This document shows, one piece after another, positions 40,200-59,216 of a DNA stretch of 64,000 nucleotides (positions are counted from its first letter, which is position 1; each line of letters starts with the position of its first letter). The stretch comes from an uncultured Verrucomicrobiae bacterium (GTDB taxonomy: Bacteria > Verrucomicrobiota > Verrucomicrobiia > Palsa-1439). Position numbers and translations under genes: made by a program. The notes beneath the pieces were generated by a model that saw only the letters and a program-made list of their open reading frames with translations, was not told the DNA's origin and did no database searches. The stretch is from contig CAWEWF010000014.1 of NCBI GenBank assembly GCA_963812605.1, forward strand, positions 605,003 to 669,002, in the 5' to 3' direction.

Positions 40200-41384
40200 C
40201 CGGGCTTCAGCTCTATATTGATTTCATCGTCTTCTCATTTGGCGCGGTCATTGGCAGCTTTCTTAATGTCTGCATCCACCGGATGCCCCTGGATCAGTCC
40301 ATCGTGTTCCCGCCGTCCCACTGTCCGCACTGCAACCAGCGCATCCGCTGGGCCGACAACATTCCGCTCTTCAGTTACCTGGCGCTGGGGCGCAAGTGCC
40401 GCAACTGTGGCGCGAAAATCACTGCGCGGTATTTCCTCGTGGAACTCCTGACCGCGGTGTTGTTCCTGTTGATGTGGCTGAAACTGACGCAGTGGGCCAA
40501 CCCGCCACTGCACGGCGTTTATCTGCTAAAAGCGCCGATCTATTGGATGGTCATCGCCGGCCTGATCGTGGCCACGTTTATCGACTTTGAGCATTACATT
40601 ATCCCCAACGAGATTACGTTCGGCGGAATCCTGGCGGGGTTGTTCCTGAGCGCGGTTTATCCGCCGTTGCAGCCCAACGATATGGTGACGTCCCTCGATA
40701 CTGAAGCTTATGCCAATCTCAATGCCAGCGTGGAGCGCGGGGCTGTTCCGATCCCTCTTTGGGGTACTGGTGGGTGGATTTGTGCTTCTCGCCATTGCTG
40801 AGTTTGGCAAGCTCCTGTTTGGGAGATTACGCGTGAAACTGCCGCCGGACGCGACGGTCATTATCGCTGATGGCAAGCTCAAATTGCCTGACGAAGAAGT
40901 CGATTGGCCCGATCTTTTCTTTCGGGATTCCGACAAGATACGTTTTCAGGCCACGTTCCTGAATTTTGGCGACAAGCAATTCACTGATGCGACCGTAATC
41001 GTGCAGGAAGATTCAATCACGATAAACGACGAGCACTATCCTTTGGCGGGCACCGGAATCATCGAAGCGAAGACCAGCGAGATCGTGATCCCACGGGAAG
41101 CCATGGGATTTGGAGACGTGAAATTACTGGCGGGTATCGGCGCATTCCTGGGCTGGGAAGCGACCTTGTTTTCCCTGTTCCTTTCGTCGGCGGTAGGCGC
41201 GGTGGTGGGTCTGGCGTTGATTGTGATTGGGAAAAAGGACCTGCAAGGGAAGATCCCCTATGGGCCGTATATCGCCCTGGGCGCGCTTGTCTGGCTCTTT
41301 GCAGAAGACCAACTTCTTGCTATCATGGCCACGTATTTGGAAAATGTGAAAGACCTCCTGACATTGATATTCAGTAGAGGATAG
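40196..41384 (+). CDS. pilD: Prepilin peptidase (A24 family), with a 1-nt frame break near 40737-40740
   Basis: GSFLNVCIHRMP, CPHCNQRIRWADNIPLFSYL..CRNCGAKI and MGFGDVKLLAGIGAFLGW. The two ORF-track pieces (40196..40801 and 40710..41384) join if one G of a GGGG run is removed. GTG start. Confidence 0.85.
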
Positions 41385-41387
41385 ATT

Positions 41388-42519
41388 ATGCCGCAACTGC
41401 GTTACTTCACCGCAGGCGAATCGCACGGCCAATGCCTGATTGGCGTAGTCGAGGGGCTGCCGGCCGGCCTGAAACTGGATCGCGCCGCCATCAATCGCGA
41501 TCTCGCGCGCCGCCAGCAAGGCTACGGGCGCGGCGGTCGCATGAAGATCGAGGCGGATGAAGCGGAGATCGTCTCGGGCGTGCGCCATGACGAAACGATT
41601 GGTTCACCCGTCACCTTGATGGTGAAAAACCGCGACTTCAAAATCAACGAACTCGCCGGCCGTCACGAAACCACGTCCCGGGCATGCCGACCTTGCGGGT
41701 GTTATCAAGTATGACCGCCAGGACGCTCGGGACATTCTCGAGCGCTCCAGCGCGCGGGAAACCACGATGCGCGTGGCCATTGGTGGTGTCTGCAAGCTGT
41801 TGCTCGCAGAGGTCGGCGTCGACATCGTCGGTCACATCGTCAGCCTTGGTACGGTGCAGGCGAAGACAGACGGGCTGACGTTTGCCCAAATCCGCGAACG
41901 CAGCGAAGCGAGCGAAGTCCGCTGCGCCGATCCCGAAGCCGAGAAAAAAATGGTCGAGGCGATTGACGCCGCCAAGGGGCAGGGGGATACGATCGGCGGC
42001 GTGTTTGAAGTGATCGCGGTCGGCGTCCCGATTGGCCTCGGCAGCCACGTTCATTGGGACCGGAAACTCGACGCGAACCTCGCCCGCGCCTTGATGAGTA
42101 TCCAGGCCATGAAAGGTGTCGAGGTTGGACTCGGATTTGAGGCCGCGCGACGCTTGGGCTCACAGGTCCACGACGAAATCCTGCCGGCGCAGGACGGCGT
42201 CTTCACCCGCGCGGGCAATAATGCCGGGGGTTTTGAAGGCGGCATGACCAATGGCCAGCCAGTCGTCGTTCGCGTCGCCATGAAACCCTTGTCCACGCTC
42301 ATGAAACCGATGCGTTCGGTGGACATTCAGACGGGGCAGGAAGTAAAAGCCACCGTGGAACGCTCCGACGTCTGCGCCACGCCGGCGGCGGCGGTCATTG
42401 GGGAAGCGGTCGTCGCGGTCGAGTTGGCGAAGGCGTTGCTGGACAAGTTCGGCGGCGACAGCGTGCGCGAGCTAAAGCGCAATGTGGAAAGTTACCGCCA
42501 AGCTTGTCAGCGGTGGTAG
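41388..42519 (+). CDS. aroC: Chorismate synthase, with a 1-nt frame break near 41655-41668
   Basis: [21 protein letters not shown] and [15 protein letters not shown]. The motif [34 protein letters not shown] is read in the frame of ORF 41767..42519. Confidence 0.9.
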
Positions 42520-49734: not shown

Positions 49735-51578
49735 TACCGAACGGAGATGGAAGCGACCGACTCACGATAAGGCTTCCCATCACGGTACAACTGCGCGCGC
49801 GCCTCGATCTCGCCGGCCAATTTCAATTGCCCGTCTGCGCGCGCCAATTTCGCGGCTTCTTCAGCGGACGCAAGCGCTTCCTGAAAGCGGCCTGCCGCTG
49901 CGTACGCCGCCGCCAGCGTGTCGAGGTAGGTAGCTTGCCCGGCGATCCAGCTTCAAGGCGAGTTGAACGGCCTGCGCGTGGTCCGCCGAAGTCGACTTCT
50001 CGGCTGTCGCCAATAGCCAGGCGAGATTGTTGTACGCGTCGGCACGGTCGGGATCCAGCCGCAACACCTCTTCGTAATGGGCAATCGCTTCGCCGTTTTT
50101 GCCCTGTGAAACCAGGACAACCGCCAGGTTGAAGTGCACGGACGGTTCGTTGGGATCGGTCCGCAAGGCCTCTTGGAACTGGCTGATCGCATCGTTCTGG
50201 TTGCCCGCCTCTCCCAGGGCAACTCCCAAGTTGTCGTGCGCCGCCCAAGCCTTCGGATTCTTTGCCAGGTTGTCACGCCAGAGCGTTTGGTTATCGGCGT
50301 ACACCGTACTGCGCTGCCATGTTCCCGCCGCCAGTGCCACCAGTATCCCTCCGCTGACCGCGATGGCCCAGGGACGGCCGGGTTTGCCAACGCGGCGGTA
50401 AACCCAGTCGCCGGCGGCGACTGCCAAGGCGATGACCCCACGATGGAGAAGTACTGCCAGTGATCGGCCACCAGCGAATAGTGATAGAAGCCTTGATCGA
50501 AGAATCCCAGCACCGGAAACAGCGTCACCACAAAATAGCCAAAGCCAAATAACAGAGCTCGTCCCCAAGTCTGCCGTTTCCACCAAAACACCGCGAAGCA
50601 GCCGACCAGCGCAATCCCCGGCACGCAGGAAATCCAGCGAGAGGCATCGATATCCCATTTGGGATACATGATGGTCAGGTTCAGGGGCCAGAGCGCCTTG
50701 GAGAGATAGAACCAGGGCACCCAGCCCGCCGTCATCAGGCGGGAAAGAAATCCTTCTGGGCGAGCCGTATTTCCTCCCAACGCCCGGTGATGCTGAAACC
50801 AGATGGTCGTCAGCCCGAGGACCAGCGCAAGGACAAAGAAAGGCACACTGTTGCAGGAGGTCTTTCCACCGAACCCGACCATGCTGCCACCACACGCACC
50901 CCAGGAGGACAAACGGCAGCATTACGACCGCCGACTTGCTCAACAGGGCCAGTAGAAACGTCGCAAGTGAAAGGACGTACGTGCGCCGCCGCCTTCTTCG
51001 TCGAATCGTAAAAAGAGCAGGATCGACGCGGCATAGAAGAGCATTGCCATTGTGCTTTTCTGTTCAATAACCCAGCAAACCGTGGCGGCGTTCACGGGAT
51101 GGATGGCAAACACGAGTCCCGCAGCCCATGCGCCGGGAATTTTGAGTCGACGCAAGACCAACCACACCAGAACAGCACTGGCAGCATGCAGCAGCACGTT
51201 GACGACGTGGTAGCCTGCCGGGTGATTGCCCCACAAATGCCACTCGAACCACAACAGGCTCCATGTCAGCGGATAATAATCCGGGGCCTCGGTCGTGAAC
51301 CAAATCCGCTGCAGCCCGTCGGGGGCTTTGAGCAACTGGTTGTGGAGAATCAGGGTGCCATCATCAAAGACAAAGCCGTCCTGCCAGGCGGGCAGATAAG
51401 TGATGACGGTTATCAGGAGGATCAAGCCGGCCATGCCGAGGAATGTCCGCGTCGGCATGTTTATCAAGCGCAACTGCTGGCCGCCTGGATCGGGTTGGCG
51501 GGCAGTTGTGTGGGCTTTTGTTTTCGTCATCGCGTTCCGAGTGGGCGGCATCTTAGCAACTCGAAGTGAAAACAGCAA
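49735..51578 (-). pseudogene. TMTC/PMT-like (DUF1736-type) membrane glycosyltransferase with C-terminal TPR repeats, paralogue 1; about 4 frame breaks
   Basis: FVFDDGTLILHNQ, EAPDYYPLTWSLLWFEW, YHVVNVLLHA and AIHPVNAATVCWVIEQK. The continuation switches between ORFs 50940..51578, 49861..50943 and 49953..50912. The last TPRs (AGQATYLDTLAAAYAAAGRFQEAL..YRDGKPYRESVASISVR) end at a TAG at 49735. Confidence 0.75.
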
Positions 51579-51593
51579 AAACCGTCTTCCCGA

Positions 51594-51822
51594 GGCAAGC
51601 CGGCGGCTTGCCCTACAATACGCCGGCCATTGGCAAGCGGGCCGCTTGCCCTACAATACGCTGGCCAATTGTAGGGCAACGGGCCCCCGTTGCTGTTGTA
51701 CAATTCATTGGCAAGCGGGCCGCTTGCCCTACAAATTCAACAACCGCCCGCCAGGATTGTAGGGCGACGGGCCCCGTTGCCGTTTATGTCCGGGATTGGC
51801 AAGCGGGCCGCTTGCCCTACAA
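51594..51822. repeat. Array of 6 REP units in alternating orientation (BIME-like), upstream of the RAYT gene
   Basis: GGCAAGCGGGCCGCTTGCCCTACAA (x3), GGCAAGCCGGCGGCTTGCCCTACAA, and the inverted TTGTAGGGCAACGGGCCCCGTTGC / TTGTAGGGCGACGGGCCCCGTTGCC. Spacers are 12-28 nt. Confidence 0.85.
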
Positions 51823-51865
51823 ATCGGTCTTGTCGTACAATGCGGCGGGCTGCTATAACCGCGGC

Positions 51866-52514
51866 ATGGCGCATCCGCCACGGATTCCGGTCTGGCTGCC
51901 ACTGGATAAACCGGTTGTCTACTTCGTGACGTGGTGCGTCCGCAATCGTCGGCCCGTACTGGCCAACGCCGAGGCCTTGATTGCCTTCCAAAATGCCGTG
52001 GGCCGATTGACCCGCTGGCAGGTCATCGCCGCCGTTCTGATGCCCGATCATGTGCATGCTCTGACGTGTCCGTTGGATCGCGAGGAGGCGGTCGGTGATT
52101 TTTCCGCGCTGGTGAAACGCTGGATGCGCCAGGAGTTGACGCGCTGCCAGGATCGTAGGGCAATTTATTGGCACGCGGGCCGCGCGCCCTACAATAATTG
52201 TAGGGCAACGGGCCCCGTTGCCGTTAAACCGAGATCGGCACGCGGGCCGCGTGCCCTACAATACGCCGGGCATTGGCAAGCCGGCGGCTCGCCCTACAAG
52301 TGGCAAGCGGGCCGCTTGCCCTACAAGCAAGCCGGCGGCTTGCCCTACAAATTGGGAATGGCAGCCGGGGTGTTTTGACCGGCTGCTGCGCTCCGATGAA
52401 TCCGCTCAGCAGAAATGGGAATACATCCGAGAGAATCCCGTGCGGGCCGCGTTGGTAAGCGAATGGCAGGCCTGGCCGTATCGCGTTGGGTTCAATCCGC
52501 CGTCAGGGTTGTAG
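51866..52514 (+). mobile_element. REP-associated tyrosine transposase (RAYT, IS200/IS605 Y1 HUH family) gene, split by an internal REP array
   Basis: MAHPPRIPVWLPLDKPVVYFVTWCVRNRRPVL. The HUH motif lies in VLMPDHVHAL. The C-terminal piece, in another frame, is WQPGCFDRLLRSDESAQQKWEYIRENPVRAALV (YxxxNP tyrosine motif). The stop TAG (52512-52514) is the GTAG of the next REP. Confidence 0.75.
52154..52350. repeat. 6-7 REP units inserted within the RAYT reading frame
   Basis: GGCACGCGGGCCGCGCGCCCTACAA, TTGTAGGGCAACGGGCCCCGTTGCC, GGCACGCGGGCCGCGTGCCCTACAA, GGCAAGCCGGCGGCTCGCCCTACAA, GGCAAGCGGGCCGCTTGCCCTACAA, CAAGCCGGCGGCTTGCCCTACAA. Confidence 0.85.
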
Positions 52515-52660
52515 GGCAACGGGCCCCGTTGCCGTTATTCCGGAATCGGCAAGCGGGCCGCTTGCCCTACAATTCCCACAACCGCCGTCAGGATTGTAGG
52601 GCAACGGGCCCCGTTGCCATCATATAATTCATTGGCAAGCGGGACGCCCGCCCCACTACC
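52509..52660. repeat. 4 REP units downstream of the RAYT gene
   Basis: TTGTAGGGCAACGGGCCCCGTTGCC (x2), GGCAAGCGGGCCGCTTGCCCTACAA, GGCAAGCGGGACGCCCGCCCCACTAC. Confidence 0.85.
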
Positions 52661-52741: not shown

Positions 52742-53468
52742 TTAGCTGCGACGACGAAGACCCAAAAGACCGAGCAAACCCGTGCCGACGAGAAGATACG
52801 TCGAAGGCTCGGGAACGATCGGATCGAGTCTGAGTTGACCAACTGTCGTGTTTTGGTTACCGTTGGTGTTGTTATAAGCGTTCAGCCATACCGTTTTGTC
52901 CACCAGCAAACGTGCCGATGAGTGGAGTGGTCAACGCATTATCTGTGTCCGGGCTCGCGGTGCCACTGGTCATTGACGACGGATACGTCCAGTGACCGCC
53001 TGTTGCACCCTGAAGTCCCTCAAACACACCAACTTGAGTCGCGTTAGCGGTGGTATTTGAATTAAACACCAACACGTAAATGCTACCGCTGGCAAAGCCA
53101 GGGTTCGTACCACTAAAGGTAGCGGCAATCGCGCCAGAGTTTTTGTCAGCCGTTACCAGCTGAAGTTCCAGAACCAATGGCGTTACTGAAAACACCGCTC
53201 AACGGCACGAAGTCAGACAACAAGACGGCATAGCTGGCCGGAGTCAGTTGGTTCCCAGTAGCGAGCGCCGCAATCACGGCATCGCTCTGTGAGAACTGGC
53301 CCATTTCAACCAAGCTACCATCGTGCAGGTACACCCCACCCGACGTGGCGAAGAAGTTACTAGTCATCTGCACGCAAGCGCGATGTTTGCTGCGTACACG
53401 CGGGCCGAGCCCACGCACGCAATCGCCGCTGCTACCGCTGCGAACTTAAAGATCGTTTTCCCATTCAT
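52742..53468 (-). CDS. PEP-CTERM protein, with about 3 frame breaks
   Basis: Signal peptide MNGKTIFKFAAVAAAIACVGSARVYAA (ATG at 53468). Body in ORFs 53146..53418 and 52872..53195. The canonical tail DPIVPEPSTYLLVGTGLLGLLGLRRRS* is read at 52742-52825 in a third frame. Confidence 0.65.
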
Positions 53469-53537
53469 TCTATTAATCCCTTTCCCTGTGTTCGTTTTCT
53501 GACTGCCCTGATTGTTTAACAGTTTTCCTGTTTTAAG

Positions 53538-55183: not shown

Positions 55184-56974
55184 TCACCGGGCGGGTTGCA
55201 GGCGGGCGAGCGCGGTGCGCGCTTCGGAGAAATTGGGATTGAGCCGGAGCGCTTGTTGGTAGTGCTCGGTGGCTTCCCGCAAATTGCCGGCGCGCTCGAG
55301 AGCGATTCCCAGATAATAATGTGCGTCGGCGGAATTGGAATTGATCCGCAGCGCTTGCTCCCAATGTTCCATCGCTTCCGGCATGCGGCCGAGTGCGGCC
55401 AGGACGAGTCCGAGATTGACGTGCGCCTTCGCGTAATTGGGGTCGAGTCGCAAAGCTTCCTCGTACTGCGCTTTGGCTTCCGGCAGTTTTTGCAGTTGGA
55501 ACAAGACGACGCCGAGATTGTTATGCGCATGGGCGTAATCGGGCGCGAGGCGCACTGCTTGTTCATAATGTTCCCGGGCTTCGTCCAATTTGCCGGCTTG
55601 TTGCCAGGCGCTGCCCAAATTGTTTTGCGCCTCGGCGAAATTGGGATGAAGCCGCAACGCCTGCTCGTAGAGTTCGATGGCTTCGGGCACATTCCCGGAA
55701 GCCTGCAAGACCAGCCCCAGATTGTTGTCCGCCATCCAGGCGTTTGGATTTTTGCGGAGGGTATCGCGCCAGAGAGTTTCCGAAGTTGCGTAAACGCCGG
55801 CCCGGGTCCACGTGGCGGTTCCCAGCGCCAGCAATACCGCCAGGGCCGCCACTTCTGCCACAGGCCGGAGTGGTTGATCGATTCGGCGTCCAATCATTGT
55901 CACCGCCGCGACCGCCAACGCGATGACGCCCACGATGGAGTAATACTGCCAGTGATCGGAAACCAACGAGTATTGATAAAAGGATTGGTCGAAGAAGCCC
56001 AGCACGGGAAAGAGCATGACGACGAAATAGCCGAGCCCAAAGAACCAGGGACGCCCCCAAGTCCGGCGGTTCCACCAGAAAAGCGCGAGACATCCCACGA
56101 GAGCCGTTCCCGGCAACCAGGAAAGCCACTGGGAAACATCAATGTTCCACTGCGGGTAGATGGCGCTGAGGTTGAAGGGCAGAAGCGCCTTGTAAAGATA
56201 GAACCACGGGACCCAGCCGGCGGCGGCGAGACGAAAGGGGAAACCGACGGCGCGGACCGGGTGGGCTTTCAGGAAGTGCTCATTATGGAAGTAGATCGTT
56301 ACCAATCCCGAGACCAATGAAAGGCCGAAGAACGGCGCGCTGCAGAAGAGGTCTTTCAGCCGCAGGCGTCCGCGCTGCCACCAGACGCAGCCTAATAAGA
56401 CCACCGGCAGCATGACCACGGCGGACTTGCTGAAAAGGGCCAGCAAGAATGCCGTCAAGGAAAGGCCCAACCAACGCCACCCGCCTTCTTCGTCGAATTT
56501 CAAAGAGAGCAGGATCGCGGCGGCGTAGAAGAGCATCGAAAGCGTGTTTTTCTGTTCGCTGATCCAGGCGACCGTGGCCGCGTTTACCGGATGGATCGCG
56601 AACACGAGCGCCGCTAGCCATGCTCCCGGGATTTTCAAGCGCCGGAGGACCAGCCACACCAGGATGGCATTGATGGCGTGCAGCAATACATTGACGACAT
56701 GGTACCCCGCCGCGCTGTCGCCCCAGAACCGCCACTCCGCCCACCAGAGGCTCCATGTCAGCGGATAGTAATCCGGCGCTTCCGTCGTAAACCAGAAACG
56801 GTACAACCCGTCGCCGGCACGAAGCAGGGGATTGTGGATGATCAGGGTATCATCGAAGACAAAGCCGCCGTGCAGTGCCGGAAAGTAAACGACGAACGTG
56901 ACGACCGCCAATACGAGGGCCAGGAACCAGGGTTGTTGCGCAAAGGAGATTTTTGCCGTCGGCTGGGTTGCCAT
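55184..56974 (-). CDS. TMTC/PMT-like membrane glycosyltransferase with C-terminal TPR repeats, paralogue 2 (intact)
   Basis: MATQPTAKISFAQQPWFLALVLAVVTFVVYFPALHGGFVFDDTLIIHNP, EAPDYYPLTWSLWWAEW, AIHPVNAATVAWISEQK, about 11 TM helices, then about 7 TPRs. The ATG at 56974 is chosen by conservation with paralogue 3; the ORF-track start at 57091 reads through the promoter region. Confidence 0.85.
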   Translation of the reverse strand: MATQPTAKISFAQQPWFLALVLAVVTFVVYFPALHGGFVFDDTLIIHNPLLRAGDGLYRFWFTTEAPDYYPLTWSLWWAEWRFWGDSAAGYHVVNVLLHAINAILVWLVLRRLKIPGAWLAALVFAIHPVNAATVAWISEQKNTLSMLFYAAAILLSLKFDEEGGWRWLGLSLTAFLLALFSKSAVVMLPVVLLGCVWWQRGRLRLKDLFCSAPFFGLSLVSGLVTIYFHNEHFLKAHPVRAVGFPFRLAAAGWVPWFYLYKALLPFNLSAIYPQWNIDVSQWLSWLPGTALVGCLALFWWNRRTWGRPWFFGLGYFVVMLFPVLGFFDQSFYQYSLVSDHWQYYSIVGVIALAVAAVTMIGRRIDQPLRPVAEVAALAVLLALGTATWTRAGVYATSETLWRDTLRKNPNAWMADNNLGLVLQASGNVPEAIELYEQALRLHPNFAEAQNNLGSAWQQAGKLDEAREHYEQAVRLAPDYAHAHNNLGVVLFQLQKLPEAKAQYEEALRLDPNYAKAHVNLGLVLAALGRMPEAMEHWEQALRINSNSADAHYYLGIALERAGNLREATEHYQQALRLNPNFSEARTALARLQPAR

Positions 56975-56981
56975 CGGGCCA

Positions 56982-57010
56982 ATCATAGGGTTTTCTGCGG
57001 GGCGAGACAA
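56982..57010 (-). promoter_or_regulatory. Sigma70-like promoter, TTGTCT-N17-TATGAT, ending 7 nt before the ATG (possible leaderless mRNA)
   Basis: The minus strand reads TTGTCTCGCCCCGCAGAAAACCCTATGATTGGCCCGATG. It lies within a ~75-nt block almost identical to 59214-59290. Confidence 0.45.
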
Positions 57011-57065
57011 GGATCGGTACGGTCGCCGGCGGCCATTCCCAAAGACAATGGCAACAGGACTCGGC

Positions 57066-59216
57066 TTAGCGAACGGCTGGCAGTCGTGCAAGCGCGTTTC
57101 GCGCTTGGGTGAAATCGGGCTTAAGCCGCAGGGCTTGCTGCAAATGGTCTTTCGCTTCCGGGATCCTGCCCGCCAGTCCCAAAGCGATCCCCAGGTTACA
57201 GTGCACCTCGGGCGAATCCGGTTTAAGCCGCAGCGCCTGCTCCAAGTGCGCTATCGCTTCCGGGATCCGGCCCGTCCTCGCCAGGGCGATCCCCAGGTCG
57301 CAGTGCGCCTCGGTATAATCCGGCTTGAGACGCAGCGCCTGCTCGAAATGCTCTATCGCTTCCGGGGTCCGGCCTGATCCCATCAAGGCGATTCCCAAGC
57401 TGTGGTGCGCTTCGGCGTAATCCGGCTTGAGTCGCAGCACCCGCTCGAAATGCCCTATCGCTTCCGGGTCCGGCCCGATCCCATCAAGGCGGTCCCCAGA
57501 TTGTTTTGCGCCTCGGCGTAATCCGGGTTGAGCCGCAGCGCTTGCTCATACTGCTCGATGGCCTCGCTGATCTTCCCCTCCTGCGAGAAGGCGTTTCCCA
57601 GATTGTAGTGCGCCTGGGGTAAATCGGGCTTGAGCCGCAGCGCTTGTTCATACAGGCCGATGGCATCGCTGATCTTCCCCTTCTTCGCGAAAACGTTTCC
57701 CAGATTGTAGTACGCCTCGGCGTAATCCGGTTCAATCCGCAGCGCCTGCTCGTAGTGAGTGATCGCGTCCTCAATCCTGCCATCTTGCTCCATGGCTTTC
57801 CCCAGATTGTTTTGCGCCTCGGCGTAGTCCGGTTTAATCCGCAGCGCCTGCTCGTACTGGGCGACCGCTTCCGGCATCCTCGCCGCCAGATCCAGGGAGA
57901 CCCCCAGATTGTAGTGCGCTCGCGCGTTGTTCGGACGCTTTTCGACAGTGTCCCGCCAAATGGTTATTTCCGAGTTGTAATCACGATTGCGTTGAACTGT
58001 CGTGAAGGCGAGCAGAAGCACCACCGCCCCCTCCGCGACGCACCCAAGCACAATGCCTGATTGTCTGCGGAGCAGGCGTTTCCCAAGCAGAAACGCGCCG
58101 ACGACAACCATGGTCACCACTGCTGCCAACGGTAAATACATTCGCCGTTCCGCTGCCGCTTCGCCGAAGCTCGGCAGAAAGCTGGACGTCGGTCCCAAAA
58201 TGAGAAAAAACCAGGCGCCCAAAAACCCCCACTGTGGTTGGCGACGAAATGCCCACGCCGTTGCGCCGAGGAGGCCCACGACCACGGCACCGGGCAGAAG
58301 ACAGTCTTTCAGTGACAATGAAATCGGCCAGTCAAAATAGTCAAGTACCAGCGGGTGCGGCCAAAAACAAAGCCGCAGGTAGTAAACAATCACGCCGGCC
58401 TCGGTCTTCAGATAATCCCATGGCGTCAGGCCTTTAATCCCAAACCCCGTGTAGCCATGAGGCGTCCGCGCCACCAATACTGCCAGCATCAGCCAGGTCG
58501 CGGCCAAGCCAACGTATAAGACGGCGCGGCGACGCCATAATTCGCGAAACGACGGCGCGAGAAACACGCGATCATACAGCAACACAATCAGGGGAGCGGC
58601 AACCATGACCTCCTTGCTTCCCATACCCAATGCACAGAAAATGATTGCGGCCAAACACCAAAGGCCGGCGTGTTCGGATTGGGAGCTGCGAAGCGTACAA
58701 TACAACGTCAATAGCAGGAACAGGCCCATGAGCAATTCCGTACGTTGTACAATGTAGGTCACACTTTCTGTCTGAAGCGGGTGTAGCTCCCAAATGAGTG
58801 TTATCGCCCCGGCCAACCAGACAGCAACGCCGCCGAATCGATCGCGAAGTGTCCGTCCCTGAAACGTCCTGCGCAAGATCCCAAACAGCACCAAGGAGGA
58901 CAATAGATGCACTGCCAGGTTGAATGCGTGGTAGCCCCAGACATTGTATCCGCCCAATGCGTAGTTCAATGCCAACGTAAAACAAACCACGGGGCGCCCA
59001 CTGACCGTAGTGCCCAAGGGCGCAGATAACGCATCGCGGATCGGCCATAAGTGACGTGTATGGGGATTCCCGGAAATGGCGGCCACGTCATCAAAGATGA
59101 ATGGGCCTGCGAAACTGTTGTGATACGCCAGCAGCCCCGCAACCATCACCAATACCAGGGCCAAAAGCCAGGGTCGATCCGCGAAAGAGATTTTTCGTCG
59201 TCGGCTGGTTTGCCAT
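57066..59216 (-). CDS. TMTC/PMT-like membrane glycosyltransferase with about 10 TPR repeats, paralogue 3; two 1-nt frame breaks (about 59190-59200 and 57455-57462)
   Basis: MANQPTTK(I)SFADRPWLLALVLVMVAGLLAY..FIFDDVAAISGNPH. The TPRs continue into ORF 57066..57440 once a C is restored in ACCCGG (the neighbouring repeat copy at ~57370 has ACCCCGG). Confidence 0.8.

Follow-up and report, generated by a model that had tools for sequence, protein, structure and literature searches.

Can a gene for a transposase that is associated with repetitive extragenic palindromes (REPs) be invaded, within its own coding sequence, by the REPs that surround it, and can it survive the invasion? This question is raised by a locus in a stretch of 64,000 nucleotides (hereafter the window) from contig CAWEWF010000014.1 of assembly GCA_963812605.1, the genome of an uncultured Verrucomicrobiae bacterium from soil (G000, the source genome). 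There, REPs of a single class both surround and occupy a gene encoding a REP-associated tyrosine transposase (RAYT, also TnpA-REP). The locus is probably a REPtron of a verrucomicrobial RAYT clade in which one surface loop, between the structural elements alphaC and beta4, serves as a landing pad for the clade's own REPs. The central idea, namely that REPs can colonise the RAYT gene to which they belong, is already published, and what is new here is modest: another RAYT clade, another loop, another phylum, a within-genus series and the largest array in the clade. A recurrent change of state at one site (forced at least five times) and the local copying of internal units also set the present case apart.

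The gene and its REPs

The gene extends from an ATG at 51866 to a stop codon at 52512-52514, as read from the window sequence and the list of open reading frames (ORFs), and its two halves are separated by a block of REPs (Table 1). The window gene is a RAYT, as indicated by its HUH and tyrosine motifs, its profile matches, the alignment of an orthologue with Escherichia coli TnpA-REP and the fold of another, in agreement with an earlier note, made from the letters alone, that had recognised a Y1 HUH transposase of the REP-associated type. The NCBIfam model for REP-associated tyrosine transposases (NF047646, cut-off 80 bits) matches both the N half (36 bits, profile positions 11-85) and the C half (41.5 bits, positions 105-145), and it scores 91, 84.6 and 76.2 bits on orthologues with no, one and two internal REPs, respectively. 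Pfam PF01797 reaches 22 bits on the ORF of the N-half frame, against a cut-off of 23. The C half carries the motif WEWQPGCFDRLL...EYIRENPV, with the catalytic tyrosine codon at 52422-52424. Across an alignment of 93 sequences H62 does not vary and H64 is retained in 90% or more, and the N half shares 84-86% identity with orthologues.

An insert-free orthologue aligns with E. coli TnpA-REP (4ER8) with an E-value of 1.8e-6. The structure was modelled on the orthologue from genome G012 and not on the broken product of the window; this model (predicted local distance difference test, pLDDT, 86.9) recovers 4er8_A as top match in Foldseek (E 3.4e-7, TM scores 0.56/0.61), followed by the ISDra2 and IS608 transposases. 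An IS200/IS605 insertion sequence was considered and rejected, the gene being single-copy in the source genome and the IS200 model NF033573 yielding only 17-27 bits, far below its cut-off of 55. Seven Y1_Tnp matches occur in the source genome, and the six besides the window gene are different proteins, none of them a second copy of it.

One of these six, on contig C1 (~509090-509750), is the only other short RAYT among the Y1_Tnp matches of the genome. It is intact, with about 150 aa and the motifs MPDHLHAL, WQRGFFDHRL and DYIRQNPV. Its gene (C1:~509250-509600) is flanked by REPs of a different class, GGACGGCTC-NNN-GAGCCGTCC-CTACCA, and contains no internal REP.

REP units were located by repeat finding and by a scan for hairpins followed by CTAC. 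The result agrees with the counts made in the earlier note, namely six units upstream of the gene, four downstream (the fourth degenerate) and six to seven inside (the seventh truncated). The unit architecture and the occurrence of both orientations were also found as described there: in each unit an 8-bp GC stem closes a loop of 3 nt, and CTACAA follows. The sequence of plus-oriented units is GGCAAGCG-GGC-CGCTTGCC-CTACAA, and minus-oriented ones have the compensated stem GGCAACGG/CCGTTGCC. A single unit folds as single-stranded DNA (ssDNA) with -9.2 to -9.3 kcal/mol, and the inverted doublet downstream of the gene (52509-52572), of the type known as REP doublets forming hairpins (REPINs), folds with -23.6 kcal/mol (z -5.5). 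Searches of Rfam with the hairpins returned sub-threshold microRNA false positives only.

In the source genome (4.17 Mb, 15 contigs, 58% GC) the strict pattern GGC-N13-GCCCTACAA occurs 100 times, compared with four times for a reversed control pattern, and 95 of the 100 copies have at most one stem mismatch. The copies group into 73 clusters, by far the largest of which is the RAYT locus. Among the doublets, 14 of 15 are inverted minus-plus pairs, arranged as in REPINs with their GTAG feet pointing outward; the spacers measure 9-26 nt (9-15 nt in 13 of them). Some copies of this REP class were found in all 18 genomes of the genus, and those with a close RAYT orthologue are richer in them (100, 63, 24, 21 and 13 copies) than the others (median 9; Mann-Whitney p=0.004); a census of this kind had been suggested in the earlier note. 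A broader pattern (SSC-N13-GSS-CTACAA) did not improve the census, its control background being about 35 per genome.

Further hairpin-CTAC families are abundant in the source genome, for example CCGAAGC-TTAC-GCTTCGG-CTACA[AG] (about 37 perfect copies) and CCGCGAA-NNNN-TTCGCGG-CTACAA. Within 1.5 kb of these other abundant families no RAYT gene was found in the assembly, which is 90% complete.

At least part of the internal array was copied locally from the flanks of the gene and not assembled from dispersed copies, because the spacers that the copied units share do not occur elsewhere in the genome. Counting the spacer, the internal REPIN (52198-52262) has 91% identity to that of the downstream flank (52509-52573), and a two-REP internal unit of 63 nt has 87% identity to a counterpart in the upstream flank. 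Also, the spacer TACGCCGGSCATT of the internal array occurs elsewhere only in the upstream flank. Recombination, gene conversion or enzyme-mediated copying could each have been the route.

One loop in the relatives of the gene

In order to place the internal REPs in context, 61 related genomes were searched with the N half of the RAYT and the loci were then inspected. Where orthologues carry internal REPs, these occupy exactly the position they have in the window, between KRWMRQEL and WxWQ. The orthologues of G045 (57% identity to the window gene; RQQL-KAT-WQWQ) and G002 (64%) are intact and have no internal REP. In G009 (60%) a single REP, with the insert ANCRAGAPPAES, is in frame within a protein of 157 aa, in G012 (the metagenome-assembled genome, or MAG, palsa_1439; 86%) an inverted pair is in frame within 181 aa, and the metagenome protein P0002 (86% over the 144 columns of the tree described below) has three REPs, also in frame. 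Three internal REPs are found as well in G001 (a MAG with a Microflora Danica label; 84%), where the frame is broken by defects that differ in kind from those of the window. The REPtron arrangement, a RAYT gene flanked by REPs, is common to G045, G002, G009, G012 and P0002. Compared with such orthologues, the insert of the window gene measures 214 nt where insert-free relatives have three codons; this was the comparison proposed in the earlier note to define it.

The earlier note had also allowed that the internal repeats might be an artefact of assembly collapse. Their presence cannot be accounted for in this way: the P0002 locus is identical in three independent assemblies, with the flanks and the stop codon inside a REP as in the window, and G009 and G012 have REPs at the same codon position.

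In G002 a REP (contig C68, 1309-1340, minus strand) extends over the 3' end of the ORF and encodes the final residues of the RAYT, PPSGPLGLQ. In the window, the TAG stop of the gene (52512-52514) falls within TTGTAGGGC of the REP at 52509, as the earlier note had pointed out. Together with the stop of P0002, these sequences show that the 3' end of the RAYT is REP-derived in several lineages.

A protein search recovered 589 homologues from Verrucomicrobiota, most of them without a name or labelled RayT. Among 102 homologues whose loop could be parsed, 78 have a loop of 3 aa and in 24 (about a quarter) an insert of 9-49 aa is present. REPs, read in various frames and orientations, spell most of these inserts (for instance ARGPRALQ, GKRSACPT, NCRAGAPPAES and IVGQPPRLAS). 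The alphaC-beta4 loop is the only variable site in the core, since the spacing between WQ and the catalytic tyrosine is 21 aa in 116 of 116 homologues. In the G012 model alphaC spans residues 76-101 and beta4 residues 130-133, the insert lengthening alphaC and then continuing as a disordered loop of low confidence.

A maximum-likelihood tree, built with the insert region masked, requires nine changes of insert state, at least five of which are forced by well-supported branches. The clade of the window gene comprises six rows, every one of them insert-bearing. In an independent sample of metagenome loci, examined as DNA, 10 of the 12 copies with an insert are in frame, and in one metagenome lineage a loop of 21 nt appears to be what a deletion has left of a 42-nt REP loop. 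The metagenome scan yielded no copy above 76% identity, and look-ups of the exact products of the 170-aa and 270-aa ORFs gave no match.

A target-site motif for the REPs was considered and rejected. The empty site of G045 has GCTACC aligned with the REP foot, and 25 other empty sites share only x-Ala-x loop codons; a conserved target motif was not found at the empty sites.

The landing-pad reading proposed here would work as follows. By homology to E. coli TnpA-REP, the single-domain Y1 HUH nuclease would bind the GTAG-footed REP hairpin in ssDNA and cut and rejoin the DNA beside it. The landing pad is the loop that precedes the invariant WxWQ...FD motif and has three residues in most members; REPs are gained and lost there repeatedly, and frame-keeping copies persist. 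In the window, the pad has grown to six REPs and a truncated one, at least partly by copying of REPIN units with their spacers from the gene's own flanks. Direct support comes from the anatomy of the locus, its family membership, the repeated use of one site, the frame that is mostly kept in relatives and the derivation of internal units from the flanks. The enzyme would mobilise the window REP class, selection for an open frame may explain why the alphaC-beta4 loop only is used, and the way in which REPs accreted is likewise inferred.

Some points weigh against the landing-pad reading. Restriction to one loop could reflect targeting instead of selection. Several internal units are truncated or have stem mismatches. 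An insert of 71 codons would be the largest of the clade and would be compatible with a real loss of function. Lastly, the link between REP abundance and array size (approximate internal versus genomic REPs: 0/5 in G045, 0/18 in G002, 1/21 in G009, 2/24 in G012, 3/63 in G001 and 6-7/100 in the source genome) is confounded and is discounted, because the search pattern is tuned to the REP class of the source genome and because the two REP-richest genomes are the likeliest long-read assemblies. The label of G001 and the contig sizes of the source genome suggest such assemblies, which would recover more repeats and carry more indels; these two genomes are also those with frame-broken copies.

An extension of this reading, in which we place little confidence, is that of a fuse. 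A RAYT with a substrate REP beside its own REP-recognition surface would load its own gene with REPs copied from the flanks until function is impaired or the frame lost. Such a self-targeting enzyme would couple REP proliferation to its own shut-down, and the apparent rise of internal with genomic REP numbers would be its footprint. In a variant of the same idea, the REP-encoded peptide may retune the hairpin that is recognised.

Reading frame of the window gene

As assembled, the two halves of the gene are out of register. The segment between them leaves a remainder of one when divided by three, the ORFs 51566..52378 and 52218..52514 overlap over the repeat block, and the ORF of the N-half frame terminates at 52378. 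The earlier note had deduced from this that the gene is either dead or one indel away from an open frame. The arithmetic is correct and the offset of one base stands, and the weight given to a dead gene does not, the assembly being full of frame breaks. For the same reason a single frame offset in this assembly is no evidence of a pseudogene, and inside a hairpin array its weight is low.

In the source genome, frameshifts break five of the eight RND (ACR_tran) transporter genes into 2 to 9 or more pieces, the other three being perfectly intact. The chorismate synthase gene aroC (window 41381-41860) has one frame change near 41650-41665 with both halves well conserved, most likely the result of an indel error in the assembly consensus. 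The two neighbours of the RAYT locus are also affected (Table 1). In the upstream gene, for a TMTC/PMT-like membrane protein, a frame change lies near 50436 and in-frame TGA and TAA stops at 50922-50942. In the downstream gene the frame changes fall between the signal peptide (MNGKTIFKFAAVAAAIACVGSARVYA) and the PEP-CTERM anchor. Coverage by long ORFs averages 77% genome-wide, and positions 40-50 kb of the window fall in the lowest 5-10%, a measure that alone cannot separate errors from decay. At nine junctions in RND genes, homopolymer runs of at least five were present in only two, against a background of 10%, so that no clear tie to homopolymers emerges. None of the indexed sequencing runs searched contains the window stretch (shares of at most 0.06).

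The reading that we favour, with a moderate degree of confidence, is that the organism has an intact gene for a RAYT of about 215 aa, in which REPs encode a loop of about 71 aa, and that the offset is a single-base consensus error. It is consistent with the pervasive frame breaks in RND genes, aroC and both neighbours, and with the fact that both frames are open over most of the array. Both halves are under purifying selection, the ratio of nonsynonymous to synonymous substitution rates (dN/dS) against three relatives being 0.15-0.38 for the N half and 0.09-0.16 for the C half. Relatives from other assemblies keep one to three REPs in frame at the same site, and 10 of 12 insert-bearing metagenome copies are in frame. 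On the other hand, the breaks are over-dispersed among genes and show no clear homopolymer link, and the longest insert in an intact protein of the clade is 49 aa.

A possible, if somewhat doubtful, alternative is that the RAYT is a genuine recent pseudogene, in which REPs accreting in the coding sequence put it out of frame and so inactivated the REP-spreading enzyme. The +1 register of the halves and the early end of the N-frame ORF agree with this, as does the fact that the array is the longest of its clade and includes degenerate and truncated units. Both neighbours are broken, the upstream one with two in-frame stops, and the very uneven breaks of the RND genes (none in three genes, at least nine in one), at junctions lacking a clear homopolymer tie, would fit pseudogenes of different ages. 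Broken RAYT copies are common at the clade's metagenome loci, and there are precedents for frameshifted RAYTs near REPIN populations that are large or decaying (bioRxiv 10.1101/2021.07.10.451892). In Neisseria gonorrhoeae the RAYT is frameshifted and the REPIN population is decaying, and large REPIN populations occur near recent RAYT losses (same source); the window locus, as assembled, is alike in combining a frameshifted RAYT with REPINs that remain in the genome, but in N. gonorrhoeae the frameshift is not inside an intragenic REP array. Against a pseudogene, breaks in aroC and in most RND pumps of a free-living 4.2-Mb genome point to consensus errors, neither half shows relaxed dN/dS, and there is a single offset only, in a GC-rich hairpin repeat, the kind of sequence that polishing corrects least well. 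Any inactivation of the window RAYT would be recent, because dN/dS is low and all catalytic motifs are intact.

Joining of the halves in expression, by programmed ribosomal frameshifting or transcriptional slippage in the REP array as in some insertion sequence transposases, is very improbable: both frames are open across about 160 nt of overlap (52218-52378) and the array RNA would be very stable (-112.9 kcal/mol, z -4.1), but intact relatives require no frameshift, the defects of G001 are of another kind, and a +1 shift would be needed, for which no search for a slippery motif was made. Y1 RAYTs are not known to use recoding.

Contigs of up to 883 kb suggest that the source genome was assembled from long reads, which would span the array, and REP copy number as assembled would therefore be more reliable than the frame.

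Table 1. Features of the RAYT locus and its neighbours in the window, and split RND genes elsewhere in the source genome (contig:positions)
Feature	Position	Strand	Remarks
Upstream REP array	51594..51822	.	six units: 51594+, 51632+, 51669-, 51710+, 51757- (1 stem mismatch), 51798+
RAYT N half	51866..52138	+	91 codons, MAHPPRIP through PDHVHAL to KRWMRQEL; spans beta1 to alphaC
HUH motif (HVH in PDHVHAL)	52049-52057	+	within RAYT N half
Intragenic REP array	52139..52352	.	214 nt, six REPs and one truncated copy; alphaC-beta4 loop
Truncated internal REP	~52154-52166	-	first unit of intragenic array
Complete internal REPs	52170+ (1 mismatch), 52198-, 52237+, 52275+ (1 mismatch), 52302+, 52327+		52198-/52237+ form a REPIN
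RAYT C half	52353..52514	+	WEWQPGCFDRLLRSDESAQQKWEYIRENPV...PPSGL; spans beta4 and alphaD; frame +1 relative to N half
Downstream REP array	52509..52658	.	four units: 52509-, 52548+ (pair = REPIN), 52594-, degenerate 52634+
TMTC/PMT-like tetratricopeptide repeat (TPR) membrane protein gene	49861..51578	-	upstream neighbour, outside element; at least one frame change
PEP-CTERM protein gene	52742..53470	-	downstream neighbour, outside element; at least three frame changes
Split RND gene	C8:9697-12750		
Split RND gene	C1:670454-673520		
Split RND gene	C10:78426-81377		
Split RND gene	C14:250391-253497		
Split RND gene	C1:321374-324222		

The TMTC/PMT-like gene at 49861-51578 has a paralogue at 55184-57250, with 60% identity.

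Known systems and other elements of the genome

REPtrons, that is RAYT/TnpA-REP genes flanked by REPs, bacterial interspersed mosaic elements (BIMEs) or REPINs, are well established (Nunvar 2010; Bertels and Rainey 2011, PMC3116915; Ton-Hoang 2012; Messing 2012, PMC3479197). As in the known REPtrons, such as that of E. coli TnpA-REP (4ER8), the window RAYT is a single-domain Y1 HUH protein of about 145 aa whose fold, as modelled for the G012 orthologue, matches 4ER8, and GC-rich hairpins with GTAG/CTAC feet flank the gene directly in inverted orientation and are dispersed in the genome, mostly as REPINs. It differs from them in its verrucomicrobial host, in flank arrays of four to six units, in a stop codon within a REP and in the REPs within the coding sequence.

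The earlier note knew of no RAYT colonised by its own REPs. This arrangement had in fact been described for tnpA-REP genes of subclass 2.4, equivalent to Bertels RAYT group 4, in which REPs are found in frame (Quentin et al. 2018, BMC Genomics 19:475, PMC6006769). The insertions of subclass 2.4 usually preserve the frame and vary in loop length, and were read by those authors as tolerated insertions in a peripheral loop; REP insertions are mentioned for subclass 2.8 too (PMC6006769). In the window clade, REPs of the flanking type lie in the coding sequence in frame in G009, G012, P0002 and 10 of 12 insert-bearing metagenome copies, but one base out of frame in the window gene as assembled. Subclass 2.4 has NH[IFV]H and YIxNNP motifs with a variable insert between beta3 and alphaC (PMC6006769), whereas the motifs of the window clade are DH[LV]H, WQ and Y[IM]RENP and its insert lies between alphaC and beta4. 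By motif only, the clade comes closest to subclasses 2.5 and 2.7. The window array is also distinct from those of subclass 2.4 in comprising 6-7 units over 214 nt and in being out of frame as assembled. The alphaC-beta4 region has been placed near the REP-recognition surface (PMC6006769). No Verrucomicrobia are listed in the available text of that study.

REP/RAYT systems had been thought, in the earlier note, to be poorly described outside proteobacteria. The part of Di Nocera et al. (2013, PMC3733652) that was available reports GTAG REPs in the Planctomycetes-Verrucomicrobia-Chlamydiae (PVC) group and in other non-proteobacterial phyla, with Opitutus terrae the richest in intragenic REPs. 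According to the same part of the paper, many PVC GTAG palindromes lie in frame in protein genes, and most REP-carrying species have REPtrons. The intragenic REPs mentioned there are in housekeeping genes, in contrast with those of the window, and none is mentioned inside a RAYT itself.

REP/RAYT systems are among the commonest repeat systems of bacteria, and how REPs spread and how their number is controlled are still open questions. With the loci described here, what was observed in 2018 holds for a second RAYT lineage, another loop and a phylum that has been little studied. These loci form a natural allelic series of one RAYT lineage, with none to about seven of the hairpins that are its own substrate placed, mostly in frame, in a single loop next to the DNA-recognition region. 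Such a series constitutes a compact test set for the effect of the insert on activity and specificity, for action in cis of the enzyme on its own gene, and for the relation between RAYT loss and REP bursts. The locus also carries a caution, in that one frame offset in this assembly does not identify a pseudogene.

Another Y1 domain was observed outside the window, in the alanyl-tRNA synthetase gene of the source genome (contig C2, 121098-124472, minus strand), a single open frame of 1125 codons. Here a complete Y1 HUH (RAYT-like) domain lies in frame between two tRNA-synt_2c stretches. The inserted domain reads ...VMPDHVHLLVWP...VWQHESYDRIVRDE...WNYIANNAV and is matched by PF01797 at residues 331-448 with 18.9 bits, below the cut-off. 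Alanyl-tRNA synthetase frames are similarly long in the relatives G034 (1155 aa) and G058 (1108 aa).

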